A stretch of DNA of 41,690 bases, from assembly GCA_029856105.1 (NCBI GenBank), contig JAHQWH010000059.1:1-41690 (forward strand), written 5' to 3'. The DNA is from Promethearchaeia archaeon. Lineage in GTDB: Archaea; Asgardarchaeota; Lokiarchaeia; Sigyniarchaeales; SOKP01. Under the pieces are notes generated by a model. The model had not been told where the DNA came from and searched no databases. It saw only the letters and a list, made by a program, of their open reading frames with translations. Within the stretch, counting starts at the first letter, position 1. Each line of letters opens with the position of its first letter. The position numbers were made by a program, and so were the translations under genes. Positions 3,256-17,722 of the stretch are shown here, piece by piece.

Positions 3256-4281
3256 ATGTATTTAATAAATCTAGAATGTTTAATTCTAATTATGAATAAA
3301 AAACATAAAGAAGATTACTTAATTCAAAAAATAACTCCGTTTAATGTTAATGAAGTGAAAAATGTTGACGATCTTTTAAGAGCCCTTAAAAATTGTGGAT
3401 TTCAAGGAAGAAACTTAGGGAAAGCTTTAGATATTCTTTATAAAATGGTTAGTAATGCTGACATTTTAACTGTATTAACTTTAAGTGGTGCTATGATTCC
3501 CGCAGGTATGGGAGATTTAATTTATACATTAATGGACCATAAATTAATTGATGTTTTAATTACTACAGGAGCAAATATCATACATGATTTAGTAGATGCA
3601 TTAACTGATGTAGGACATTATATTGGAAGTTCTACTATAGATGATAATGAATTGTTTAAATTGAGAATTAATAGAATATACGATACTTTACTACCTGAAG
3701 AAAATTATAAGGTGGTTGAGGATGCTTTATTAGAGATAATTCATGAAATATTTGAATTTAAAGAAATTAACATTTTACCTTCAGATCTTTTAGCTAAAGT
3801 TGGTGAAAAATTAAATAACAGAAGTCTTTTAACTGTGGCTGCTAAAAACAACATTCCTATTTTTGTCCCTGCTTTTTCTGATTCTGAATTTGCATTAAAC
3901 TTAATCAAATATTCTATAAAAGAAGATTATAAGTTCAATTTTGATATTCTTGGAGATGTATTAAAATTTGCTGATATCATAAGAAAATCCAGAGAATATG
4001 GTACTTTAATAGTTGGAGGGGGGGTTCCAAGAAATTGGGCTCAACAAATCTTTCCTTTGCTTGATCAAATAGAAAATGTTGAGAGGATGGGTTATAATTA
4101 CTCCGTCAGAATACATACTGCTACTGAATATGATGGAGGTCTTTCAGGATGTACTATTTCAGAATCAAAAAGTTGGGGAAAATATTCTTTAGAATCAAAA
4201 TATATAAGTATATGGTGCGATGCAACCATAGCATTACCAATTTTAGTTACTGGATTATTACAGAGATTGAAAATCATCTAA
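3256..4281 (+). CDS. Deoxyhypusine synthase-family protein (true start may be ATG 3292)
   Basis: GFQGRNLG, LSGAMIPAG, TTGANIIHD, INRIYD, PAFSDS, GGGVPRN and DGGLSGCTISESKSWGK with the catalytic Lys in SWGK, then DATIALP. Confidence 0.88.
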   Translation: MYLINLECLILIMNKKHKEDYLIQKITPFNVNEVKNVDDLLRALKNCGFQGRNLGKALDILYKMVSNADILTVLTLSGAMIPAGMGDLIYTLMDHKLIDVLITTGANIIHDLVDALTDVGHYIGSSTIDDNELFKLRINRIYDTLLPEENYKVVEDALLEIIHEIFEFKEINILPSDLLAKVGEKLNNRSLLTVAAKNNIPIFVPAFSDSEFALNLIKYSIKEDYKFNFDILGDVLKFADIIRKSREYGTLIVGGGVPRNWAQQIFPLLDQIENVERMGYNYSVRIHTATEYDGGLSGCTISESKSWGKYSLESKYISIWCDATIALPILVTGLLQRLKII

Positions 4282-4637
4282 AAATATCTTTTTTAGAAAT
4301 TTTTCAATTTTAAAATCATATTTCAATAGGTGAATTGAAAAATGTGTTTTGAAAAGATAATTTCATAAAAATACCTTACCAAAAAATACTTATAATGAAG
4401 AATTAAATCCTATTTGAAATAGAAAATCACACTTTAAATTTAAGCAACATTAATGGTTTTGATTAAATAATAAAAATTCATTTTATTTTTGCTTTCATAG
4501 GGAAAAGCAATTGATGAGTTCATTTAAAATTCATTTAAAAATCTGATTAAAAAGAAATAATTATTAATGTAAAAAAAAATTTAGACTCACTTGTATTGAA
4601 TTGGGGATGTCATTAGATTATAATAGTCTATTTAAGT

Positions 4638-4745
4638 CTAAAAGTCTTCAAAGTCACCATCATTTTCATCATAAACTTCCCAATCATCATCTTCTTCGTG
4701 ATAATTTTCCCAATCTTTTTCTTTATCTTTAATTTCAATATTCAT
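4638..4745 (-). CDS. 35-aa acidic Trp-containing small protein MNIEIKDKEKDWENYHEEDDDWEVYDENDGDFEDF
   Basis: Below the ORF-track cutoff. ATG at 4745, TAG at 4638-4640, Shine-Dalgarno GGAGGT at 4753-4758 (7 nt spacing). Composition is strongly non-random for an AT-rich intergenic region. Confidence 0.65.
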   Translation of the reverse strand: MNIEIKDKEKDWENYHEEDDDWEVYDENDGDFEDF

Positions 4746-5361
4746 TTTAAAAACCTCCAATTTTATTTTGTTTTTATTGAGATTAAAAATATCAAATAGT
4801 ATCAATTATAAGGAAAACCAATAACATATATAAATATTTCTATATCAACTCATAGTGTTTCTGATCTATTTATTCAATGTTAGAATTGTCAAGTCTGGAT
4901 TAGGGTAAAGTATTAGAGAGTTAGTCTTTCTATTCTTTTTAGTTAAAAATTATTGTTTGGAAATCCTTTCGTATAAAGATATATTCAATACTGTGGATAA
5001 CTTAAATCGAAAATTTACTTTACTAAAAGCTTAAAAAAATCTGGAAAATTAATAAATTTGAAAATTCAGTATAGGTATGTTCATGTATTCTCTCAAAATC
5101 TCGATAATTTCGACAAAATAAATTAAAGATAAAAGATAAAATTGTATATAAATCTCAGAAATATTTGCATTTATGCTATGAATATAACATGGTTGGAAAT
5201 TATTTAAATTAAAAAATTTGCATAGAATATTAGAGTACTTATTCTATTCTAGTGGTGGTTTATTTTTAAACTTCTAATAGTTGATTCGTTTAAGTAATTT
5301 CTTGCTGAGTTAAAGAAAAATCCCATTTTGAGATATAATTGGTGAGGGATCTTACTTAGTA

Positions 5362-5508
5362 ATGTTGTTCTTGATTATGGTGAGTAGATTTCTTGTAGGG
5401 ATATTTTGGATAAGAAAGGACTTGACAGAAAATTATTTTAATTCAGAAATACTTCCCACATTTGAAGATCAGGTGAAAAAATGGAAGAAAATTTTTATAT
5501 TTCCCTAA
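5362..5508 (+). pseudogene. Possible remnant or small membrane protein (48 aa)
   Basis: MLFLIMVSRFLVGIFWIRKDLTENYFNSEILPTFEDQVKKWKKIFIFP. The frame stays open for about 10 codons upstream to a TGA, which suggests the 3' end of a decayed gene. Confidence 0.25.
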
Positions 5509-5518
5509 TATTAAGATC

Positions 5519-6982
5519 TCATCCAATTACATGATAATGTAAGGAAGAATGATGGTAATATCTTGGAGATATAATATAAGCTAACGGTCTTTTTCTCACA
5601 TACTTTTCTAAATCTTTTTCTAAGAAAGTATATGCTAAAAGATGTACAATTGGGATTATTAATTGCGTCCATTCATCATATTGGCTTTGTGAGAAGCTAT
5701 TTTCAACTTTAATGATTTCAGGATTCATTGCTAATAAGAGAGCATATTCAATTAATTCAGGTACAAATTTGGCACTTTGAGCCCGTAGGATGTTCATTTC
5801 TGCCCTTAATAAAATCATCCAAGTTTCCTTAACATCCCATGGAAATAAAGCTGAAAGCGATGCAAAGAATTTAGAACCTTCAGGAATATCACGCAATAAA
5901 TCTTTAAAAAAGGTTAGTTTTGATAGATCTCCTATAAAGGGGATAACAAATGAAGCATATACGACTTCTTTATTACTTAAAGAACCTATAGGTTGATCCT
6001 TAAAGATTTTTTTCAAATTTTTTAAATATTCATCACCCAACGCTTCACTTCCATGATGAAGAGACCAGTTCGAGAATAATCTTCCTATCATTGAAGTGGC
6101 TTTTTTAATTCTTTGATAATGAGGATAAGCATGTAAAAATTCTTTTATATCATGAGCGGGATTATCTTTTCGATATTTATATTGCATATTTTTTTCAATT
6201 TTTAGGATATCTCTATTTGAATCAGGTATGCTTAATTGAGGATTTCTCATAAAATTAATAGAAAGTGTCATCATTCTCTTCTCTGCTTGTTGATAAGTAT
6301 ATTCTCTTTTTGATATCGAGTTAAATGCTTTTTCTAATCCGCCTAAATTAGTATTTAACAGATAAACTGCCCAGATTGGAGAAAAAACTCCCGTTTTCAT
6401 TATATCGCCCACTTTATTAATTAAGGATGAAAATTCTTCATCAAGTTGATCGATTAGATTAATCAAGACATTTAAATCCCTTGATAAAAAACGTTCTCGA
6501 GCTTCAATCTCATCAATCATATTATCTCCTATAGGTGTTAAGACAACATTTTTTCCATTGACTCGTACAGCCTGATTAATTGATTGCTTTTGATCATTTA
6601 ATCTCAAAATTTGATCCTTAATAATACTGACTTGAGTATCCATCTTTTTTATCTCATTCTTCGATTTAGAAATTTGAGACTTCAGCTTTTTTCCTTTTCC
6701 AATTTGTAAATAACTAGCTAGCTTACTACCTAGAGAAGCATGTTCATATTCTCTTTCTATAGATAATAACTCCTTATTTAGTCCATGAATCTCGCTATTT
6801 AGTCGATCATAATTCATCTTAAGAGTATTTATCTCACTTTCCGTTGGTAGATCGGCACTTTCTTTCCCGTATTCGCTAATAAAGGAGAATTTCAATAAGT
6901 CTGAAATCTCATCAGAAGAACAAGGAATATCATTCCTTTTTTTAATCGATGTTAATATTTCTAAAGCTCTTTCACAATCCAT
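5519..6982 (-). CDS. Hypothetical protein: winged-helix-like N-terminus with inserted coiled coil, helical body, His-rich C-terminus
   Basis: 487-aa ORF with heptad-like region at about aa 48-137, VVLTPIG wing motif and C-terminal YYHHSSLHYHVIG. Starts 1 nt after the upstream stop. Confidence 0.75.
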   Translation of the reverse strand: MDCERALEILTSIKKRNDIPCSSDEISDLLKFSFISEYGKESADLPTESEINTLKMNYDRLNSEIHGLNKELLSIEREYEHASLGSKLASYLQIGKGKKLKSQISKSKNEIKKMDTQVSIIKDQILRLNDQKQSINQAVRVNGKNVVLTPIGDNMIDEIEARERFLSRDLNVLINLIDQLDEEFSSLINKVGDIMKTGVFSPIWAVYLLNTNLGGLEKAFNSISKREYTYQQAEKRMMTLSINFMRNPQLSIPDSNRDILKIEKNMQYKYRKDNPAHDIKEFLHAYPHYQRIKKATSMIGRLFSNWSLHHGSEALGDEYLKNLKKIFKDQPIGSLSNKEVVYASFVIPFIGDLSKLTFFKDLLRDIPEGSKFFASLSALFPWDVKETWMILLRAEMNILRAQSAKFVPELIEYALLLAMNPEIIKVENSFSQSQYDEWTQLIIPIVHLLAYTFLEKDLEKYVRKRPLAYIISPRYYHHSSLHYHVIG

Positions 6983-6983
6983 T

Positions 6984-8159
6984 TTAATTCACCATTTCAA
7001 GTAATGGAATTTCTACTAAAGGAACTTCAGTTCCCTCTAATACAATTAATAAATCTTTATTTTGATTTTTTGAATATACGAAACTGTCTTGATTTATAGC
7101 AAGTTGGATGAGTAGTGCTAACTCTTCTCTCTGCCTATTCCAAGACATCTTAGAACCTTCTAATTGGTGTCGATATGAATCGATTTTAACTAAGGCAAAA
7201 AGAAATTCAAAAGCTAATTTCTCCCACTCCTTAGATTGAGTTTCTGCGAATTTGTCTTGAGATACTGTTTTCCATATCAATCCTTCTAAGTCAGCAAAGT
7301 GAATTGTACCATCAGGAGCAACCACGCAATCTTTATCTAGCCACACATCTTGATATATGATTCCTGTTATGTTATCTCCTTCTTTTTTTGCCGATCTCAA
7401 AAATAAAGACAATAATGCTATCCCGCTTTTGATAAAGTTTATTTCAAATTTTTCAATAAGTTTTTCGGTATCTAAATCAAATAACGAAAAGAAAGAACTA
7501 GGATTAGCAACTAAACGAGAAGATTCAAAATATAATCGTATGTTCGAAGGCATTAATCTAATTTCTTGATAAAAATGATCTTTATAGGTACTAAACCAAA
7601 AGAACTTACGAGCCATTTCTTCAATTTCAGGAGGTAATTGTACGACCCCTATGACAGGGCAAATGTGAGCACCATTGATGGAATCTAATTTTGCTAACTT
7701 GGAGAAAGCTAACTCATCAAAGGCATTGATAAAACCTTGACAACCATATGGGCTTTCTCCCATCCAAGATTCGCCCATAATAAAACCTGTTCCTGTTGTT
7801 AATTTATCTACAAGATGAAGGCATGTAGAATCGCGACAAGCATTTCGTATACGAGGGGGTGATAATAATTTTCCTTCGTACATATCTTCATATGCTCCAC
7901 ATCCTTTAATAGCTAAAAAAAAAGTTTTGTCATTTAAATTGACTGAAAATTCTGGAAATATTGCGTTGCGATTTTCATCTTTTATAGCATTTAGTTTTGG
8001 TTCTTTGATATCATGTAATTCCGCCGTAGCGGGACCTATGTATCCTGTTATCCATTTCTTATATGATTTGAATTGCGGATTTATTGCTGAAATTTCTGCA
8101 TTTACAGAATATAATTGTAAATCAATTGACTCATGAAGAAATCGTTCGAAAGTATTCAA
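6984..8159 (-). CDS. SelO/YdiU-like atypical protein-kinase-fold protein
   Basis: Collinear SelO-like motifs: ENRNAI (DGRAI), LAIKGCG (LQLKGAG), YG...AFDELAFS (DG...SIREYLIS), NGAHICPVIGVV (LGIPTTRAL), IRLMPSNIRL (TRVAPSHIRF), and a divergent catalytic segment ..DKDCVVAPDGTIHFADLE. Confidence 0.65.
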   Translation of the reverse strand: MNTFERFLHESIDLQLYSVNAEISAINPQFKSYKKWITGYIGPATAELHDIKEPKLNAIKDENRNAIFPEFSVNLNDKTFFLAIKGCGAYEDMYEGKLLSPPRIRNACRDSTCLHLVDKLTTGTGFIMGESWMGESPYGCQGFINAFDELAFSKLAKLDSINGAHICPVIGVVQLPPEIEEMARKFFWFSTYKDHFYQEIRLMPSNIRLYFESSRLVANPSSFFSLFDLDTEKLIEKFEINFIKSGIALLSLFLRSAKKEGDNITGIIYQDVWLDKDCVVAPDGTIHFADLEGLIWKTVSQDKFAETQSKEWEKLAFEFLFALVKIDSYRHQLEGSKMSWNRQREELALLIQLAINQDSFVYSKNQNKDLLIVLEGTEVPLVEIPLLEMVN

Positions 8160-9832
8160 AAGCGTCTCACCTTTACTTTAGGCATTTTAGTTCCAAATAA
8201 AGTAACCTTTCCCAATTTTGGGGCGTTAAAATCATCATAAATATTTTTTGCAGGGCTATTCCATTCAGCAATTTCTGTTATAGCAGAATTACATCCTAAT
8301 TCTTTTAAAATTGATAATCGAGCATTTACTAGTGCTCTACCAATTCCTTTATTTCTGAAAGCAGGATGAACATACAGCCCATATAACCATCCCGTTTCTT
8401 TTCCGGGAGTAGCAAATCCAACGCCTAATAGTACTCGGTCTAAATATATTTCTGGTTTTTTATAATTTCTTCTGAGGATCTCTTTTAAGATCTCTTCAAC
8501 CCATTCTTCTTTGGTAGAAGCTGTTGCGATTACTATAATATCACTCTTAGCCGCTTCAATAACCCATTTTGCATCCCTTTTTTTGGTAGTGCCACTATCT
8601 TCATTAGCAATCAATCGCATGATTGCATCTAAATCTTGAGCTGTTGCAGGCTCAATTAGATTAGCATCATAATGAACTTCCATTCCCTGCAAGTATTTAA
8701 TCTTAAACACATCATACTTCTCGATAGTTTTAAAACCAACGAGTCTAGAATGTTCAGCGTGGGCATATTTTACTTTAGTATATAATATTAAGTCCTCAGA
8801 ATATTTTCCAAAAAATGTCCCAACCTTTCCATTCGGTTCAATAAATCCGATTCCTTTAAGCTTTTCTTGATTATGAGCCGAAACAATTGTTTTTCCTTGA
8901 ATTTTTGCTCTGGAAAGATATGCAAGAATCATTTCTGAATAAGGAGAATCAACAGAAAATTCTAACCCTCCTGGCATTTTTCTTTCTACAACCACTTCTT
9001 GCTTCTTACCTCGTGCTCTTATAACTCTTGGTTTCCATCTATAATGTTCATAGACTACATAGAAAATTATAGCCATAAATAGTAATGGGGCCCAATAGGT
9101 AAGAAGATACATCCAAATGCAAAATGGGCGTAAGTAACTTGAAGATGTTATAAATACATATGAATCCAATACAAATTCTGAATAATAACCACTACTATAA
9201 CCTTTATCTTCTTCACGTAATACTTCTCCAATTAAATACCCTTCAGGAGTAAAATATTCATCAATTGTGTAAGTAGCTTCAAATTGTCCATATACATCAT
9301 TTCTTGAATATTGCCCCGCAGAAGTTAATCGTTTTCCTGTAAATGGCATGAGATGTCCTAACCAAATCAAACCATCACCAACAAACTCATAAGTCTCATT
9401 AAGCATGGAATAGGTATCATCTTGAATTCCTCCTGGTATGTGAAACCAGACGTTTAACCCCGTAGCATCATATTCTTGATCACCAAAAGAAAGATATTGT
9501 CCATCTATTAATGAATAAGTAAAACTATAATAATCCTTTCCCCCGTAATCCTCTTCGAGATATCCTTCAAGCCAACTCTGAAATGTCCAAGTAATTACAC
9601 ATAAGACACTAGCAACTGATCCACTATAATCAATTTCATAATGTCCATTTGCCCTAAAACTCTCCGTATAACCTAGATACCATCCTCCAGTTCCAGTAAT
9701 GTCCCAATTGTAAACATAATCAAATTCAAGGTCATGATCTGTAAATTTTATACCAAGATACGGAATTCCAAATAATTGAATAACAATTGAAATTATCAGC
9801 ATTAATAAAAATAACATCGATCTTTTTTTCAT
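8156..9832 (-). CDS. Membrane-anchored GNAT acetyltransferase with putative extracellular domain
   Basis: Hydrophobic N-terminus (aa 6-28), Tyr/Gly/Asp-rich beta-type region, TM helix at about aa 238-261 followed by basic RWKPR, and C-terminal GNAT motif A LYVHPAFRNKGIGRAL plus NSPAKNIY. Confidence 0.82.
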   Translation of the reverse strand: MKKRSMLFLLMLIISIVIQLFGIPYLGIKFTDHDLEFDYVYNWDITGTGGWYLGYTESFRANGHYEIDYSGSVASVLCVITWTFQSWLEGYLEEDYGGKDYYSFTYSLIDGQYLSFGDQEYDATGLNVWFHIPGGIQDDTYSMLNETYEFVGDGLIWLGHLMPFTGKRLTSAGQYSRNDVYGQFEATYTIDEYFTPEGYLIGEVLREEDKGYSSGYYSEFVLDSYVFITSSSYLRPFCIWMYLLTYWAPLLFMAIIFYVVYEHYRWKPRVIRARGKKQEVVVERKMPGGLEFSVDSPYSEMILAYLSRAKIQGKTIVSAHNQEKLKGIGFIEPNGKVGTFFGKYSEDLILYTKVKYAHAEHSRLVGFKTIEKYDVFKIKYLQGMEVHYDANLIEPATAQDLDAIMRLIANEDSGTTKKRDAKWVIEAAKSDIIVIATASTKEEWVEEILKEILRRNYKKPEIYLDRVLLGVGFATPGKETGWLYGLYVHPAFRNKGIGRALVNARLSILKELGCNSAITEIAEWNSPAKNIYDDFNAPKLGKVTLFGTKMPKVKVRRF

Positions 9833-10132
9833 TGAATATAATCAACTCTAAAGGATTTAATTGTGTGACTACTACTACTATTAGATTGAAAGTCAAACAT
9901 TAATAATATGATCGATCTAACAATACTCCTATATAAAGTTTATTCAGATTAACTCAATGTAATCAAAACTTTTAAATAGGCTGTTTAAAATTGATAGAGT
10001 ATTTTAGATTTATAGAAAAAAAGCGCTTGCTCAAAGCCCCCTAGCTTAGATTTATGATAACCTATTCTTTTTACAAAAAAAAAACTTTCTTAGGGACAAA
10101 TGACTTGATTTTAGTTTGGTTCTAATATATCT

Positions 10133-10930
10133 TTAAATCTTATCTATTGAATCTTCCTTCTTTTTCAGGAGGTACTTGGAGAAAATATTCATATAAAGAC
10201 ATTCTTCGGGAGGCATTTCTGTGGTTAATTGTGGATTCTCTGTGAATTCTATATTACTTCCACGTATGATTACTACAGGCGTCTGTTGATCCGCTTCACT
10301 TAAAAGAAATTGGGCTGCGCTTGTAAGGTCATCTGCGATAGCTCTCATCGTAATTTCTAATGGACGGTTAAATAAATCTGGATGCCCACGTAAATCTTCA
10401 ATAGGCTCAAAACCGGCTGTAGCTATTGCTATACCAATAGTTCCCTTTCTGAGAGGCTGAACTCTCGAATCGGCAATGATCACTCCAAGGTTTTTTATTT
10501 TGAATTCTTTTTTTAAATCTCTCCAATATTCCCAAACAACTTGATTAAGATTTTCTGGTAATAGGATAACCTTATTTGGACCAGCGTTGGATTGATCGAT
10601 CCCGGCATTTGCGATTAAAAAATCGTTAACTTTTGCTAAAATAACGTGTGTTAAACCTCCTAATATCATAGATGATTCTTCTAAAATTAGCTCTACATAT
10701 CTTTCGTCCATATCGTACTTGTTAGCCAAATCTTTAGCTTTATCTGAGATGTTTTTCACATCAGATAAAATTCTAACTCTCCCCTGGGAAGTAGCAATTA
10801 CTTTTTCTGCGATAACAATGACATCTCCTTCTTTTAACGATTCTCCTTCTCTTTTAATCTGCTCTATTAAAATTCTTAATAATGGATCATTCTCTTTTAT
10901 TAGAGGGAGACTTACTGAAAATAATTTCAT
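10133..10930 (-). CDS. cofE: Coenzyme F420-0:L-glutamate ligase
   Basis: PLIKENDPL, GDVIVIAEKVIATSQGR, ANAGIDQSN, VIIADS..PLRKG.IGIAI...GF, DLRGHPDLFNRPL, ADDL, PVVIIRG. Confidence 0.92.
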   Translation of the reverse strand: MKLFSVSLPLIKENDPLLRILIEQIKREGESLKEGDVIVIAEKVIATSQGRVRILSDVKNISDKAKDLANKYDMDERYVELILEESSMILGGLTHVILAKVNDFLIANAGIDQSNAGPNKVILLPENLNQVVWEYWRDLKKEFKIKNLGVIIADSRVQPLRKGTIGIAIATAGFEPIEDLRGHPDLFNRPLEITMRAIADDLTSAAQFLLSEADQQTPVVIIRGSNIEFTENPQLTTEMPPEECLYMNIFSKYLLKKKEDSIDKI

Positions 10931-11107: not shown

Positions 11108-11596
11108 ATGATAAAAATAGATTCTTCAACACTTATAATTTCTTTGAAAATGAATTTTATAGAGATTCTAATTCAATTATATGATGAGCTTATTATTACT
11201 GAAGCAGTACATAATGAAGTAATAATTAACGGAAAGAAAAAAGGAAAGCAGGAAGCAATAATCGGGGAAAACTTATTAAAGGAAAATAAAATAAAAATTC
11301 ATAAAATAGAAGGGGACCTAATAGATTTAAAATTAGGAATAGGAGAGACTGAAGTAATACATAATTCAATCAATCTTAAATGTCCTTGTATGATGGAAGA
11401 TAAAAAGGCAAAAAGAATTGCTGAGAATTTTAATTTGGATGTAAAAAGAATTCCGATCTCCCTTTTAGAAGCATATAAAAATAAAATTATTGATAATTTT
11501 AAATTTGAGGATTACTTAATAAAATGGGTAAGATATAGTAGCCCTTCATATGAGGAGGTCTATTTTATAAAAAAAATAAAGGAGATGTTAGATTAA
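11108..11596 (+). CDS. PIN-domain protein (DUF3368-like), putative toxin
   Basis: IDSSTLI, ITEAVHNEV, LGIGETEVI and MEDKKAKRIA give the PIN acidic residues. Confidence 0.78.
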   Translation: MIKIDSSTLIISLKMNFIEILIQLYDELIITEAVHNEVIINGKKKGKQEAIIGENLLKENKIKIHKIEGDLIDLKLGIGETEVIHNSINLKCPCMMEDKKAKRIAENFNLDVKRIPISLLEAYKNKIIDNFKFEDYLIKWVRYSSPSYEEVYFIKKIKEMLD

Positions 11597-11599
11597 AGT

Positions 11600-11938
11600 A
11601 TGAATAATTTATCTGTACGAATGAATAAAGAATTAATTGATGAACTCGATCGAATAGCTAAATTACTTGGTGTAGATAGAGCTACTATTGTAAGAAAAAT
11701 AATTAATAATGGGGTTGAACAACAAAAAATAGAAGTTGCCATTGATTTATTTCAAAAGGGAGATACATTAGAGCGAGCAGCAAATATTTCTGGGGCTTTA
11801 CTTTGGGATCTTTTTGATGAATTGAAAAATAGAGGTATAACATCTAAATTTGATATTGAGCAAGAGAAAGATACTTATATAAGGATATTTGGGAAAGAAA
11901 ATAAGGATCTAGTTAAAAAAATAAGAGATATTAAATAA
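11600..11938 (+). CDS. Ribbon-helix-helix plus UPF0175-like protein, putative antitoxin
   Basis: LSVRMNKELIDELDRIAK..DRATIVRKII (CopG-type RHH) followed by AIDLFQKGDTLERAANISG..LWDL..L..RGI. Confidence 0.78.
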   Translation: MNNLSVRMNKELIDELDRIAKLLGVDRATIVRKIINNGVEQQKIEVAIDLFQKGDTLERAANISGALLWDLFDELKNRGITSKFDIEQEKDTYIRIFGKENKDLVKKIRDIK

Positions 11939-11952
11939 AATAGATACACTTT

Positions 11953-12840
11953 ATGGTTTTACAAGATTATATAGCTATGAATGAAATTTATGCGAGACTG
12001 TTTGATTTTTTAGAAATAGGAGATAATTTTCCAACGGTAATAATGGGCGTATTGAATTTAAGCCCAGAATCGTTCTATAAAGGTTCTGTATACAACGATC
12101 TAACGCTATTAGAAAAAGCAACTTTAGAAATGGTCGATGGAGGGGCGAAAATATTGGATTTAGGTGCCCGTTCTACAGCACCATGGTCAAAAAAAATTAC
12201 TATTAAAGAAGAACTCGACCGTTTAACGCCTTCAATGGAACTCGTATGTAAAATCATCCCAAATGAGATTGTTATTTCGATCGACACGCAATATCGGGAA
12301 GTTGCTCAACAAACATATGACATTGCTATAAAAAACAAAAAAAGAATTATTATTAACGATGTGAGTTGCTTAAAAACCGATCCCACGATAATAGATTTTA
12401 TAGTAGAGCACGACTTACCTATTATTTTAATGGCTTCTAAAAATGTTCCTGGCGATTTATGTACAGTTGATGAAATTATAGAAGAATTTAAATCTACTAT
12501 TAAAATCTTAAAAAAAAAAGGATATGATCTTAAGAAAGTTATTTTAGATCCGGGTATTGGTCATTGGATCGAAAGAAAAACTCATAAATATGATTTAAAA
12601 ATAATTGGTAATTTAAATAAGCTCCGCGTTCTAGAAAAACCGATTTTAGTGGCAATATCTCGAAAATCTTTTATAGGAACAACTTTAGATATACCTGACC
12701 CTGAAAATAGACTAAACGGAACTCTTGCCGCAACTGCAGTTGCAGTATATAATGGGGCTCATATTGTCCGAACGCATGATATAAATAATCAACTAATGGA
12801 ATTCACAAAAATGGCAGAGGAGATCAGAAAAAACCAATAA
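11953..12840 (+). CDS. folP: Dihydropteroate synthase family protein
   Basis: IMGVLNLSPESFY, LDLGARST, ISIDT, INDVS, ILDPGIG, ISRKSFIG, GAHIVRTHD. Confidence 0.9.
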   Translation: MVLQDYIAMNEIYARLFDFLEIGDNFPTVIMGVLNLSPESFYKGSVYNDLTLLEKATLEMVDGGAKILDLGARSTAPWSKKITIKEELDRLTPSMELVCKIIPNEIVISIDTQYREVAQQTYDIAIKNKKRIIINDVSCLKTDPTIIDFIVEHDLPIILMASKNVPGDLCTVDEIIEEFKSTIKILKKKGYDLKKVILDPGIGHWIERKTHKYDLKIIGNLNKLRVLEKPILVAISRKSFIGTTLDIPDPENRLNGTLAATAVAVYNGAHIVRTHDINNQLMEFTKMAEEIRKNQ

Positions 12841-13127
12841 ACCTCCCTCCTTTTAGATATAAGTTAAAGTTATAAAAGCAACCCCATTTTTTTAAACCTC
12901 GCAATAATTAGGCTTATTTTTTGTAAAACAGCGTTCTTTAAATATATTTCATGCTTTTAGCCAATAGATTTTATTATTCTTCGGTTTCAAGCGACGATAA
13001 AATGTACTAACATTTATAACATTTTAATTCCATATATTATATGTAAATTGTTAAATTATCACTTAAGTTCAATTAAGAACAGATGATTTTACCTTTACAT
13101 TAAATTAAATATAAGAATGAAATTCTT

Positions 13128-15200
13128 ATGCCTGAAAAAGAAAATATTTCTTTATCTAATAACCCTTCTAAAAAACACTCTTACAACGCGGATGATATTC
13201 AAGTTCTTAAAGGTTTAGAAGGAGTTAGAAAGCGCCCTGCGATGTACATTGGCGATCAAGGAAAGAAAGGGCTTCATCATCTTGTTTTTGAGGTTTTGGA
13301 TAATTCTGTTGACGAGGCAATCGGGAAATATGCAACAGAAATTAAAGTAACTCTTTTCAAAGATAATTCTGTGTTAGTTTTCGATAACGGACGCGGTATT
13401 CCTATTGGTAATCATCCCGAATATAATAAACCTGCTTTAGAAGTCATTATGGAACATTTACATTCCGGAGGAAAATTTGATAATAAAAGCTACAAAATAT
13501 CCGGAGGGTTACACGGTGTTGGACTTTCAGTTGTTAATGCCTTGGCAGAATGGTTAGAAGTAGAAATTTCTAGAGATGGTCTTATCTATAAACAAAAATT
13601 TTCGCGGGGTGTTAAAGTTACTGAACCAACGATTACAAAAACCGCAGAAATAGGTTCTTACACAAAAATCTCTTTTTATCCGGATGACGAGATATTTGAT
13701 TTCGATAAAAATGAAGTAATTTATAATGCTTCCACAATTTCTAATAGGATGCGCGAACTCGCGTTTCTTACGCCTCAAGCGCGATTTGAGCTCCATAATA
13801 AAATTAAAGACGAGAAAGAAGAATTTTTTTACGAAGGAGGAATTAAAGAATTTATTTCTTATTTGAATAAAGACAAGCAACCTCTACATAATGACATTAT
13901 TTTTATAAGCGATTCAGTTGAAAACGAAGATGGAGCGCTAATTTACCTCGATTTAGCTATGCAATACAACACTACATACCAAACAAATATTCTTACATAT
14001 GCTAATACAATTAATACTGTGGAAGGTGGCGTCCATCTTACAGGTTTTAAATCCGCACTCACTAGGACTTTTAATTCATATATTGAAAATTTTATGGAAA
14101 AAAAGTATAAAGAACACGTCCTAAGTGGGACGGATACCAGAGAGGGTTTATCTGCTGTACTTTCAGTTAAATTACCAGACCCTCAATTTGAGAGTCAGAC
14201 AAAAATCAAATTAGGAAATCCCGAAGTTAGACAAATTGTTAGCCAAATAGTTACAGAAAAATTAACTCAGTACTTAGAAGAACAGCCTCAAATAGCCAAA
14301 AAACTCGTGTTGAAAACGATTAACGCGAAAATAGCACGGGAAGCCGCCCAAAAAGCAAGGTCGTTAATCCGTAGAAAATCTGTATTGGATGGCGCAAGAA
14401 TGCCCGGAAAACTAGCTGATTGTTCTTCTAATAATCCAAAAGAATGCGAAATATTTATTGTTGAGGGAGACTCAGCTGGTGGCTCAGCAAAACAGGGAAG
14501 AGATAGGGGTTATCAAGCAATACTACCTCTTAGAGGAAAAATATTGAATGTAGAAAAAGCTCGAATGGACAAAATATTACAAAATAACGAAATTCTGGCG
14601 ATTATAAAAGCACTAGGTGTTGGAATTCAGGAATTTAACGAAATAAATGGATCTGAAAGTGAGAATGGAGCACCTGAAGAGACGGGGGAGAACGGGGGGC
14701 CCGAGGAAACTGAACACGGTATCGACCTAAATAAGTTAAGGTACCATAAAACGATCATAATGTGCGATTCTGATATCGACGGAAAACATATTGAAACATT
14801 ACTGCTCACGTTTTTTTTCAGATACATGCGACCATTAATAGACGGTGGATACCTATATATGGCTATGCCTCCTCTCTACAAAGTATCTTATAAAAAATCA
14901 AAGCATTATGTTTTTACGGATAAAGATAAAGAAGAAGCACTAAAAAATATTAAATTAAAATACAAGCTGAAAAATGTAGATACGGTAAAAATTCAGAGGT
15001 ATAAGGGATTAGGGGAGATGAACCCCGAAGAACTTTACGATACGACAATGAATAAGGAGACTCGAACGTTAAAGAAGGTATTGTACGAAGATTACATTGA
15101 GAATGATTTGATCTTTACGAAACTAATGGGCAAAGAAGTAAAATCACGTAAGAAATTTATTATAGCCAATTTTGATCAAGCAAATGTTTTAGATGTATGA
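13128..15200 (+). CDS. gyrB: DNA gyrase subunit B
   Basis: GLEGVRKRPAMYIG, EVLDNSVDE, DNGRGIP, GGLHGVGLSVVNAL, VEGDSAGGSAKQGR, PLRGKILN, DSDIDG, QRYKGLGEMNPEEL. Confidence 0.97.
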   Translation: MPEKENISLSNNPSKKHSYNADDIQVLKGLEGVRKRPAMYIGDQGKKGLHHLVFEVLDNSVDEAIGKYATEIKVTLFKDNSVLVFDNGRGIPIGNHPEYNKPALEVIMEHLHSGGKFDNKSYKISGGLHGVGLSVVNALAEWLEVEISRDGLIYKQKFSRGVKVTEPTITKTAEIGSYTKISFYPDDEIFDFDKNEVIYNASTISNRMRELAFLTPQARFELHNKIKDEKEEFFYEGGIKEFISYLNKDKQPLHNDIIFISDSVENEDGALIYLDLAMQYNTTYQTNILTYANTINTVEGGVHLTGFKSALTRTFNSYIENFMEKKYKEHVLSGTDTREGLSAVLSVKLPDPQFESQTKIKLGNPEVRQIVSQIVTEKLTQYLEEQPQIAKKLVLKTINAKIAREAAQKARSLIRRKSVLDGARMPGKLADCSSNNPKECEIFIVEGDSAGGSAKQGRDRGYQAILPLRGKILNVEKARMDKILQNNEILAIIKALGVGIQEFNEINGSESENGAPEETGENGGPEETEHGIDLNKLRYHKTIIMCDSDIDGKHIETLLLTFFFRYMRPLIDGGYLYMAMPPLYKVSYKKSKHYVFTDKDKEEALKNIKLKYKLKNVDTVKIQRYKGLGEMNPEELYDTTMNKETRTLKKVLYEDYIENDLIFTKLMGKEVKSRKKFIIANFDQANVLDV
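14661..14714 (+). repeat. Imperfect 2x27-bp in-frame tandem repeat in gyrB (ENGAPEETG / ENGGPEETE)
   Basis: gagaatggagcacctgaagagacgggg followed by gagaacggggggcccgaggaaactgaa. Confidence 0.7.
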
Positions 15201-15265
15201 TATTTGATGTGTAGTTTATCTTTTTATTAAATATTATTAAATAATAAATAGATTTGGTATTAAAA

Positions 15266-17722
15266 ATGACTTCAGAGAATATTATAGAGATCGAATTAAA
15301 AGAGGAAATGAAAAGTAGTTACATAGATTACGCCATGTCCGTTGTCGTTGGGCGCGCGATTCCCGACGTGAGAGATGGATTAAAACCAGTACATCGTAGA
15401 ATAATTTACGCTATGGCCGATAACAATTATTTTTACAATCACGCACACGTGAAATCCGCGAGGATTGTGGGCGAGGCTATGGGAAAGTATCATCCTCATG
15501 GAGATGCTGCGTTGTATAATACATTAGTTCGTATGGCACAAGACTTTTCGTTAAGATATCCATTAATCGATCCACAGGGAAATTTCGGCTCGATCGATGG
15601 AGATCCTCCGGCTGCTATGAGATATACAGAAGCACGATTAGGACAAATATCTAATGAACTAATCGAAGATATAGACAATGAAACAGTGGATTTTGTCCCG
15701 AATTTTGATGATAGTTTAAAAGAACCTGCTTTTTTACCCGCTAAGCTACCAAATATGCTAATCAACGGAACAAAAGGAATAGCAGTTGGGATGGCTACAT
15801 CTATGCCTCCTCATAACCTGACAGAAATTTGTCAGGGGATTATTGCAACAGTTGACGATCCTGTGATATCTACTGAGGAACTTATGGAAATTATAAAAGG
15901 ACCAGACTTTCCAACAGGAGGAAGCATTATTGATACGAATGGTATTTACAATGCTTATACAACTGGAATGGGCAATATAACTCTAAGGGGAACTGTTGAT
16001 GTCGAAACAAAAGGAAATAAAAATCGATTAATTATTTCTGAAATTCCTTATTTAGTGAATAAAACTACCCTAATCGAATCGATTGCCAAACTTATAAAAG
16101 ATGGAGTACTTAAAGATGTTCGAGATTTAAGAGACGAATCTGACAGAAAAGGAATGCGAATTGTTATAGAACTAACTAAAAATGCTCAACCGGTTATACT
16201 GAAAAATATTATATTTAAAAGAACTAGGCTTCAAACGACATTTAACATTAGTAATTTAGTATTAATTAACGAAGGAAGACAACCTAAGATTCTTAATTTG
16301 AAAGAGTTAATCGAAGAATACATCGAACACCGCCTTAAAATTATTTATAGAAGGACTGAATTTCATCTCAAAAAAGCTAAAGATAGGCTTCATAAAGTTG
16401 AGGGTCTCTTAATCGCATTAAATAATATAGATGATGTTGTAAACATTATTAAAAGCGCTAGCGATACCAACGACGCAAAGAATAAATTGAAAATCGCATA
16501 TAAATTAAGTGATATTCAAGTTCAAGCGATATTGAGTATGCCTTTATCGAGATTAACAAATTTAGAACAACAAAAACTAGTTGACGAAGAAAAATCTTTG
16601 AAAAAAAGTATCACTGAATTAGAAAAGATATTAGAAAATAAAAAAATCCGCTTAAGTATAATTAAGCAAGAATTAACCGAACTAAACCTAAAGTACGGCG
16701 ATAAAAGAAAAACAAGAATTGAAATTATTGAAGAGGAAAAAATTAGAGAACTTAAAAGGAAAGATTTAATCAAAAAAGAGCCAACAATTGTAATCTTCAC
16801 TAAAAACCAATACATTAAAAGAATCTCTGTAGAAGATTACCACGCTCAAAGGCGAGGCGGACGCGGAAAAAGAGGTATGACTGTTCGTGAAGAAGATTTC
16901 ATAACCGATTTATTTGTTTGTTCCACTCACGACACGATCTTAATTTTTACTTCCAAAGGTAGAGTATATTCCATGAAATGTTTTGAACTTCCGTTACAAA
17001 CGCGCACGGCTAGAGGGAAACCCATTATAAATTTGATCGCCCTACAACCGGGGGAAAACATATCATCAATGATTCCAATTAATAACTTTGACACTAATGA
17101 AATGCTCATTATGACCACGAAAAAAGGCATTATAAAGAAAGTCCCTTTAAGGTTATTCTCGAAATTTAAAAAAACAGGTGTGCGAGCTCAACGGATAAGA
17201 CCAGATGACGAATTAATTAGCGTAAAAAGATTATCAAACGAACTACAAGATATTTTTATTGCAACAAAACTCGGTTATGCCGTAAGATTTGACGAATCAG
17301 AGCTAAGAGAATTAGGAAGGACCTCAATGGGCGTGAAAGGGGCATCGCTAAGGGAGGGGGACGATGTAATCGATAGTTTGTTAGTAACTGATGATAATAT
17401 TATTCTTACCCTAACTGAAAAAGGCTACGGACAAAGAACTTTTCTTAAAGAATATCGAAAAACAGGGAGAAATGCTAAAGGAGTAAAAAATATTTCATTA
17501 GATCATGAAAAAAATGATAAAGTTATTGCTATAAAAATGGGAAAATTAATGGATATCTTGATAGGTACAGAACAAGGACAAGTAATCAGACTTCCAGTGG
17601 ATTCAATTAGAATAACTCATAGAAAAGCAAAAGGAGTTAGAGCCATAAAACTATATGAAGACGACTCTGTTGTTGCAATAGGTAAATGCGCAACATTCAT
17701 TGACGATAAGGAAGAAAAATGA
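15266..17722 (+). CDS. gyrA: DNA gyrase subunit A (ATG 15266 preferred over TTG 15254)
   Basis: SYIDYAMSV, DVRDGLKPVHRR, YHPHGD, catalytic AAMRYTE, GyrA-box QRRGGRG and beta-pinwheel repeats. Confidence 0.97.
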   Translation: MTSENIIEIELKEEMKSSYIDYAMSVVVGRAIPDVRDGLKPVHRRIIYAMADNNYFYNHAHVKSARIVGEAMGKYHPHGDAALYNTLVRMAQDFSLRYPLIDPQGNFGSIDGDPPAAMRYTEARLGQISNELIEDIDNETVDFVPNFDDSLKEPAFLPAKLPNMLINGTKGIAVGMATSMPPHNLTEICQGIIATVDDPVISTEELMEIIKGPDFPTGGSIIDTNGIYNAYTTGMGNITLRGTVDVETKGNKNRLIISEIPYLVNKTTLIESIAKLIKDGVLKDVRDLRDESDRKGMRIVIELTKNAQPVILKNIIFKRTRLQTTFNISNLVLINEGRQPKILNLKELIEEYIEHRLKIIYRRTEFHLKKAKDRLHKVEGLLIALNNIDDVVNIIKSASDTNDAKNKLKIAYKLSDIQVQAILSMPLSRLTNLEQQKLVDEEKSLKKSITELEKILENKKIRLSIIKQELTELNLKYGDKRKTRIEIIEEEKIRELKRKDLIKKEPTIVIFTKNQYIKRISVEDYHAQRRGGRGKRGMTVREEDFITDLFVCSTHDTILIFTSKGRVYSMKCFELPLQTRTARGKPIINLIALQPGENISSMIPINNFDTNEMLIMTTKKGIIKKVPLRLFSKFKKTGVRAQRIRPDDELISVKRLSNELQDIFIATKLGYAVRFDESELRELGRTSMGVKGASLREGDDVIDSLLVTDDNIILTLTEKGYGQRTFLKEYRKTGRNAKGVKNISLDHEKNDKVIAIKMGKLMDILIGTEQGQVIRLPVDSIRITHRKAKGVRAIKLYEDDSVVAIGKCATFIDDKEEK

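Follow-up and report, generated by a model that had tools for sequence, protein, structure and literature searches.

A stretch of 41,690 nt from a Promethearchaeia archaeon (GenBank assembly GCA_029856105.1, contig JAHQWH010000059.1, positions 1 to 41,690 of the forward strand; hereafter the window) carries three tightly packed minus-strand genes that form a real, conserved and undescribed archaeal module, in which a new family of kinase-fold enzymes (gene 2) is encoded together with its probable dedicated substrate (gene 3) and a membrane-anchored acetyltransferase (gene 1). Gene 3 homologues end in a nearly invariant Gly, and the explanation that we tentatively favor, at somewhat less than an even chance, is that gene 2 adenylates the carboxylate of this terminal Gly and ligates it to an amine, in a conjugation that would resemble those of ubiquitin and ATG8 but proceed without an E1. 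The novelty appears to lie in the combination, as each of the parts has a known predicted fold, and the function of the module is putative. No description of the gene 2 family or of the three-gene module was found in the literature, and when the KINtaro family list was searched by term, only SelO and IucA_IucC came up, with no archaeal entry. The three genes, confirmed by a check of the open reading frames (ORFs), are:

Gene 1: 8156 to 9832, minus strand; 558 aa, with a predicted signal anchor, extracellular beta-sheet domain, transmembrane helix and cytoplasmic tandem GNAT.
Gene 2: 6984 to 8159, minus strand; 391 aa, TTG start, predicted SelO/NIS-type kinase-fold enzyme.
Gene 3: 5519 to 6982, minus strand; 487 aa, predicted winged-helix/coiled-coil protein with DUF4003-like repeats and an aromatic/His tail.

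An earlier reading made from the sequence only is partly supported, and none of the three outcomes that it had named as refutations was obtained. It had described an ATGA overlap between genes 1 and 2. The 4-nt overlap is present at 8159-8156, but its sequence is TTGA, formed by the TTG start of gene 2 and the TGA stop of gene 1, while the 1-nt gap between genes 2 and 3 at 6983 was given correctly. The same reading had the cluster isolated by long intergenic regions, which holds only in part: the gap is 1237 nt downstream and 300 nt upstream, where a cofE-like gene in the same direction follows; in locus L005 the downstream gap is ~75 nt. Each of the three genes is single-copy in the assembly, also when searched for with profiles.

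The closest homologues are found in Promethearchaeota (Lokiarchaeia) genomes, and the module is present in Lokiarchaeia, Thermoplasmatota and Bathyarchaeia. Gene 2 is followed by gene 3 in 23/23 fetched Asgard loci and preceded by gene 1 in all those whose contig extends far enough, and three Thermoplasmata-type loci with ~35% identity in gene 2 keep the same gene order. Among all loci with at least 300 nt of downstream sequence, gene 3 directly follows gene 2 in 134/134, and both the ectodomain of gene 1 and a GNAT are encoded in 68/69 wide loci (27 with a fused gene 1, 41 with a split form and one without a detectable GNAT), although these counts include many close relatives and are not independent. 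The clustering is widespread, as the sequence-only reading required, and far beyond chance, with the same order kept down to ~35% gene 2 identity.

The end of gene 3 provides the main clue:

Gene 3 tail: 5522 to 5539, minus strand; His482-x-His484 and the terminal Gly487, defined by conservation among homologues.

The terminal Gly is found in 104 of 106 complete homologues, the two exceptions being frameshifted copies, and His-x-His in 103 of the 106; the Gly is also kept in all 17 homologues below 50% identity. It is encoded by all four Gly codons and precedes all three stop codons, and the spacing between it and the His pair ranges from 3 to 12 residues. By comparison, 2.6% of the long ORFs in the host genome end in Gly, gene 3 is the only protein there with a His-x-His...Gly ending, and the ends of the other module genes are variable, without comparable conservation. 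Conservation across codons, stops, divergence and spacing therefore indicates selection on a free terminal Gly. His and Tyr are abundant in the tail, where two of the His are invariant. The proposal that gene 3 is a dedicated target gained support from this invariant tail.

Gene 2 had no matches in Pfam, NCBIfam or PDB sequence searches. Its structure model is confident, with a predicted local distance difference test score (pLDDT) of 94.9, and the best fold match was SelO/YdiU (Z 15.2, root-mean-square deviation (rmsd) 4.0 over 263 aligned residues; Foldseek E 4e-4 to 9e-4), followed at ranks 2-5 by four NIS synthetases (Z 10.3-12.3, the best with rmsd 5.2 over 285 aligned residues). Ordinary kinases matched at Z ~9, below both SelO and NIS, and SidJ and NiRAN were absent among the fold matches listed, which does not exclude a relationship to them. 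The SelO-like kinase fold of the sequence-only reading was thus recovered by the model searches, and the motifs it had recognized do occur in order and with matching spacing. Ten residues are invariant (50/50) in the family: R64, K85, R201, R208, D271, D275, K276, D277, D290 and E292; for D271 the count is 50/50 in alignment A1 and 45/50 in A4. Six of them correspond to E. coli SelO residues R87, K107, R170, R177, N247 and D256 (gene 2 R64, K85, R201, R208, D277 and D290, respectively), the triphosphate ligands that hold ATP in a flipped pose (PMC8097203). The register was set against E. coli SelO 240-247 and IucC 420-425 and places the active site as follows:

Gene 2 catalytic loop (residues 270-277): 7329 to 7352, minus strand; Val replaces the HRD Asp and Lys276 the base of SelO, in a register read from the sequence.

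Counting back from D277, Val272 (50/50) would fall at the HRD-Asp position, as in SelO. The general base of SelO, D252 in P. syringae (PMC8017715) and D246 in E. coli, corresponds to Lys276 in gene 2 (50/50 in both A1 and A4) and to Gln in IucC, and an invariant Asp stands one residue before Lys276. A Lys at the base position would suit an anionic nucleophile. The alphaC Glu of SelO (E136/E130) is not conserved, the only nearby Glu, E149, being present in 22/50. Gene 2 ends at residue 391 in a three-strand sheet, and the match to SelO spans SelO residues 10-336 only. No family member (0/50) matched PF02696 above the cut-off, and a profile search with working controls found no true SelO among the assembled contigs of the host genome. 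The NIS features of an H-x-Q-N loop, in place of which gene 2 has W-L-D-K-D, and a PF04183 match are likewise missing. Because it has Lys in place of the base Asp of SelO, despite the kept flipped-ATP residues, gene 2 is not considered a member of SelO; fold and residues suggest that it acts like the kinase folds that transfer the alpha-phosphate, yet outside the SelO and NIS families. The SelO-like part of the earlier interpretation therefore stands, whereas plain AMPylation of Ser, Thr or Tyr is not the favored activity, given the missing base Asp and alphaC Glu and a proximity to the carboxylate-adenylating NIS ligases that is almost as great.

We infer the chemistry of the module and its regulation from gene linkage, folds, conserved residues and the invariant tail, all of which are observed. 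Gene 2 would bind ATP in the flipped SelO orientation and adenylate the free carboxylate of the gene 3 terminal Gly, in the way in which NIS synthetases and SidJ activate carboxylates, and the activated Gly would then be joined to an amine, for which a lipid head group, a lysine of a membrane partner or a small amine are candidates. The enzyme may recognize the flexible tail by its His-x-His. Once conjugated, gene 3 would be moved or switched, with the winged-helix and coiled-coil end as the likely output. The GNAT may use acyl-CoA to modify either the acceptor amine or one of the module proteins, and the reaction would thereby be gated or prepared. The surface beta-sheet domain would link the system with the envelope, possibly with a lipid-like molecule as its ligand. 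As precedents, SidJ forms a protein acyl-adenylate (10.1101/2021.04.13.439722) and the kinase-fold aerobactin synthetase works with a GNAT (PMC2922099). A complex predicted from gene 2, gene 3, ATP and Mg scored 0.47 against 0.00 for the best control, with no interface obtained; at least 46% of contacts agreed between runs and the pLDDT of the partner was at least 76. Among the calibration pairs, 58/80 solved and 2/110 mismatched ones reached the mark, but at scores of 0.60 or below only seven solved pairs and both mismatches did, so the prediction lends weak support to the pairing. The fuller version of the favored explanation, in which a one-step, E1-independent kinase-fold ligase attaches a dedicated winged-helix protein through its C-terminal Gly to a lipid or protein of the membrane under the control of an envelope-linked acetyltransferase, is more doubtful than the core reaction. 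If true, Asgard and other archaea would have evolved a conjugation chemistry of the ubiquitin/ATG8 kind a second time and independently.

Several observations weigh against conjugation of the Gly. The module encodes no deconjugating protease and no evident acceptor, and a terminal Gly may instead be conserved because it signals docking or degradation. An hhalign comparison of gene 2 with the single E. coli SelO sequence gave nothing significant, and the active-site register reflects the spacing of motifs rather than a structural superposition. The invariant D271 and D275 could substitute as the base, and according to one review it is the DFG Asp, kept in gene 2, that acts as the base (PMC8097203). 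Finally, sister enzymes with a similar loop in DPANN archaea have no gene 1 or gene 3 neighbors.

Among the alternatives, the one that comes closest, though we hold it to be unlikely, is a refined form of the model of the sequence-only reading, in which gene 2 is a dedicated nucleoside monophosphate (NMP) transferase that places AMP or UMP on His or Tyr of the gene 3 tail, the Gly serves only to dock the tail and the GNAT adds a second, competing mark. SelO as the best fold match and the abundance of His and Tyr in the tail, with its invariant His pair, are in keeping with this model, as is the finding that YdiU UMPylates both Tyr and His (10.1101/692707); a His would presumably also need less base catalysis than a hydroxyl. 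NMP transfer leaves unexplained, however, why the last residue is fixed while its spacing to the His pair varies, and it has to accommodate the Lys at the base position of SelO. A true kinase would instead transfer the gamma-phosphate to His or to Ser/Tyr of gene 3, with D271 as an HRD-like base in a chain of receptor, GNAT, kinase and regulator. The Y-Q-D before the loop, the high conservation of D271 and the spacing of 13 residues from D277 to D290, which equals that of N171-D184 in PKA, could be read in this way, but the same spacing puts Val272 at the HRD-Asp position, as in SelO, position 271 is Gly in several sister enzymes, gene 2 invariably keeps both of the additional arginines with which SelO buries the gamma-phosphate, and the fold scores of ordinary kinases (~9) fall well short of that of SelO (15.2). 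We regard this as the least probable of the explanations considered.

Two further alternatives do not have gene 2 act on the tail, and both seem improbable, the biosynthetic one slightly the more so. In it, the GNAT would acylate a small amine or lipid, gene 2 would adenylate a small carboxylate and condense the two as NIS synthetases do, the surface domain would bind or display the product, and gene 3 would be a regulator or carrier. The ranking of NIS synthetases directly below SelO, the pairing of a GNAT with a kinase-fold ligase as in aerobactin synthesis (PMC2922099), the resemblance of the ectodomain to cavity-bearing lipid-binding barrels (PMC8972800) and the polyamine genes that adjoin the module in the window all agree with this proposal. 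Yet no precursor-supply or transport genes accompany the module, the polyamine neighbors are restricted to close relatives, gene 2 is far shorter than NIS synthetases (391 versus ~570 residues), and the invariant tail of gene 3 is left unexplained. According to the other, the tail is a degron or a binding site for a metal or the GNAT, and the module would serve in stress or defense, with gene 2 acting on other targets in the cell and gene 3 as an inhibitor or scaffold. Clusters of His often bind metals, the genomic position of the module varies and its distribution is patchy, with 21/301 Asgard genomes (two families) and 16/401 searched genomes of the Thermoplasmata-type phylum of locus L025 carrying it. 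Against a defense role, which the sequence-only reading had also raised, a search with PADLOC 2.0 (library dated 2023) gave no matches for six proteins at E 0.01, the neighbors are mostly housekeeping genes, with an AbiE pair near one locus only, and the C-terminal sequence would be evolving very slowly for a conflict system. Support for a defense role is also lacking from the G+C content of the module, which follows that of the host from 30% to 72%; this indicates that the module is long resident, and it led us to reject a recent mobile island.

The module can also be set beside its closest known systems. SelO/YdiU (PF02696; PDB 6EAC, 6LNA) shares with gene 2 the kinase fold, the Val at the HRD-Asp position and, in the same order, the Arg, Lys, Arg-6x-Arg, metal-ligand (SelO Asn, gene 2 Asp277) and DFG-Asp residues, but identity is 10-12%, SelO has the base Asp (Lys in gene 2) and the alphaC Glu, and its C-terminal helical domain and Cys/Sec redox tail have no counterpart in gene 2, which in turn belongs to a fixed operon that also encodes a candidate for its dedicated substrate. 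The NIS synthetases IucA/IucC, AcsD and SbnC (PF04183), with an IucB-type GNAT, likewise combine a kinase-fold ligase with a GNAT partner and have no Asp at the SelO base position; they differ in being longer, in the H-x-Q-N loop and in their siderophore precursor and transport genes, whereas the partner of gene 2 is a 490-residue protein with an invariant end. The Legionella glutamylase SidJ is a kinase fold that first acyl-adenylates a dedicated protein and then makes an amide bond, much as proposed here, but it activates an internal Glu, needs calmodulin and uses a second pocket. In the ubiquitin, SAMP, ATG8 and ThiS-MoaD systems, the C-terminal Gly is activated by E1/ThiF enzymes. The module resembles these in the invariant terminal Gly on a flexible tail beside a putative adenylating enzyme, and departs from them in having no beta-grasp protein (gene 3 is helical), no E1/ThiF fold, no E2 and no JAB protease, in ending more often in a single Gly than in Gly-Gly, and in the large size of the tagged protein.

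The kinase fold has repeatedly been found to carry out unexpected chemistry, as for SelO, SidJ and NiRAN, and here the neighboring gene of an unannotated family encodes its probable substrate and gives a sharp clue to where this is modified, which makes the reaction testable. A C-terminal Gly ligase would represent a new way of ubiquitin-like tagging in the archaea that are most closely related to eukaryotes, and NMPylation of His would still be a new dedicated signaling modification in archaea. The module also provides a first context for a DUF4003-like fold.

Gene 1, for which 64 homologues were found, is organized as follows:

Signal/anchor helix (residues 5-23): 9764 to 9820, minus strand; hydropathy 2.6 after a basic N-terminus.
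Ectodomain (residues 28-240): 9113 to 9751, minus strand; predicted curved antiparallel beta-sheet of LmcA/DUF6263/lipid-transfer-like shape, with conserved R-x-D-x-Y-G and V-W-F motifs.
Second transmembrane helix (residues ~242-262): 9047 to 9109, minus strand; predicted by hydropathy, with a basic stop-transfer segment after it.
Acetyltransferase region (residues ~275-558): 8159 to 9010, minus strand; a putative degenerate N-terminal GNAT and an intact C-terminal GNAT.
Acyl-CoA motif A (R-x-x-G-x-G): 8356-8339, minus strand; in 104/117 homologous ORFs, fused and split.

The hydrophobic helices span residues 5-23 and 242-260. Three basic residues precede the first helix, the region 28-240 is acidic and 22% aromatic, and nine K/R versus two D/E follow the second helix. 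Hydropathy and charge thus predict that the N-terminus is inside, residues 28-240 outside and the C-terminal part inside, which, with a PF00583 match at 463-532 (E 7e-12, 46.1 bits against a cut-off of 20.7), bears out the order of signal/transmembrane segment, aromatic ectodomain, transmembrane segment and cytoplasmic GNAT read from the sequence earlier. An outside location of the N-terminal domain is also consistent with the signal-peptide-like starts of split homologues. As to the substrate class of the GNAT (protein lysine, N-terminus or small amine), the scores for NCBIfam equivalogs were all far below cut-off. The ectodomain of gene 1 is homologous to that of the split form (E 6e-13), and a homologous ectodomain modeled from locus L103 is a curved antiparallel beta-sheet with pLDDT mostly above 90. 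Its best match was mycobacterial LmcA (Z 12.4, rmsd 4.5, 188 aligned), a cavity-bearing protein (PMC8972800); lipovitellin and DUF6263 are also close, the latter with a TM-score of 0.58. Binding of a lipid-like or hydrophobic ligand is a lead only, since autotransporter barrels reach nearly the Z score of LmcA.

The split form occurs in Bathyarchaeia and some Thermoplasmata in the order gene 2, gene 3, a membrane protein and then, convergently on the opposite strand, a soluble 276-aa GNAT. The membrane protein has a signal-peptide-like start, the same ectodomain, a transmembrane helix, a linker rich in Pro and a zinc ribbon. The gene 2 tree groups the split forms in one derived clade (100/100) nested among fused forms, which suggests that a single fission gave rise to them, although the root is unsure with long-branched DPANN rows as the outgroup. 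The GNAT is still adjacent in this clade and therefore belongs to the system. The arrangement of outside domain, one transmembrane helix and inside enzyme in one chain holds for the gene 1 studied here but not for the split clade, and the 'receptor acetyltransferase' proposed earlier does not survive as a universal mechanism, as the GNAT is separate, soluble and on the opposite strand in 41/69 wide loci. Any direct control of the GNAT across the membrane would be confined to particular lineages.

Gene 3 comprises a winged-helix-like and coiled-coil part (~1-160), DUF4003-like repeats (~165-450) and the aromatic/His tail. Its architecture was derived from L103, a split-type locus in which a natural frameshift fuses gene 3 to the membrane protein so that gene 3 and the ectodomain were modeled together; as the tail is broken there, the low model confidence at 464-549 says little about the native tail. 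Loki-type and split-type gene 3 are homologous along their length (hhalign 95%, E 3e-8). The model has a winged-helix-like start, a ~95-residue coiled-coil hairpin inserted in the beta-hairpin of this domain, and then short helical repeats, which in Bathyarchaeia-type homologues resemble DUF4003 with a TM-score of 0.76 by target over ~300 residues. PDB searches with the L103 model barely tested this repeat part. No family was matched by sequence: a Pfam scan of 73 homologues gave coiled-coil noise only, and the PF13170 profile had no match in the host genome, such that the DUF4003 link is structural. DUF4003 (PF13170, Bacillota) shares the helical-repeat body but not the winged-helix/coiled-coil end or the His/Gly tail, and is to our knowledge of no assigned function. 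An ESCRT-III reading of gene 3 was rejected, as the coiled-coil matches (CHMP4B, SMC and others) are generic. Frameshifted copies include L103:3999-6572, in which the Gly end is lost, L126:6165-7813, in which gene 3 is broken, and L024:871-2510, in which gene 1 is broken near an N; all may be assembly errors. Longer copies of gene 3 (578-590 aa) are found at L022:7213-8949, L023:7271-9043 and L053:8331-10073, and those of L022 and L023 have a long Arg/Tyr/His/Gly-rich low-complexity insertion before the His-x-His-Gly end that could bind RNA or membranes. In one Thermoplasmata-type locus (L051:9978-10835), an extra 285-aa gene without a Pfam match overlaps the end of gene 3.

More distant gene 2 relatives are found in Parvarchaeota and Woesearchaeota, where the partner genes are missing. 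Two sister enzymes without genes 1 and 3 lie at L165:7001-8681 and L166:7001-8900 (the latter in a cluster named Parvarchaeota); one is convergent with a CYTH gene and the other is followed 1 nt later by a 234-aa gene of no assigned function. On a Logan contig (SRR31012007), a further distant relative (P0344, 8001-9230) is followed by a 456-aa gene at 9232-10602, probably a second gene 2 relative (P0362 has the same length and contig size). The two directly follow two M16 peptidase genes and could form a separate peptide-modifying unit in DPANN-type archaea.

Polyamine metabolism genes, a pyruvoyl arginine decarboxylase and a deoxyhypusine-synthase-family gene, flank the module at 2391-2939 and 3256-4281 of the window and are present in this position only here and in close relatives. 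In many Loki genomes, a formylmethanofuran dehydrogenase-like cluster (amidohydrolase, molybdopterin-binding and Fe-S genes) converges on gene 3, as at L013:9001-12877 and similarly in L001, L006-L016 and L019, and this was not seen in other phyla. Functional links to either set of neighbors were rejected because the adjacency is limited to a lineage. The region 4282-5518 of the window has no large ORF, is 86% identical to L003 over 993 nt and is absent in most relatives; a tiny, very acidic minus-strand ORF lies within it around 4638-4805. A scan for sigma-70 promoters gave matches at chance level, with a sigma-70 model unsuited to archaea. At 11108-11938, a 162-aa gene without a Pfam match, which by impression we take to be PIN-like, precedes an RHH/UPF0175 gene, and the two are probably a toxin-antitoxin pair. 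The genes at 11953-17722 are presumably dihydropteroate synthase, gyrB and gyrA, as read by eye.

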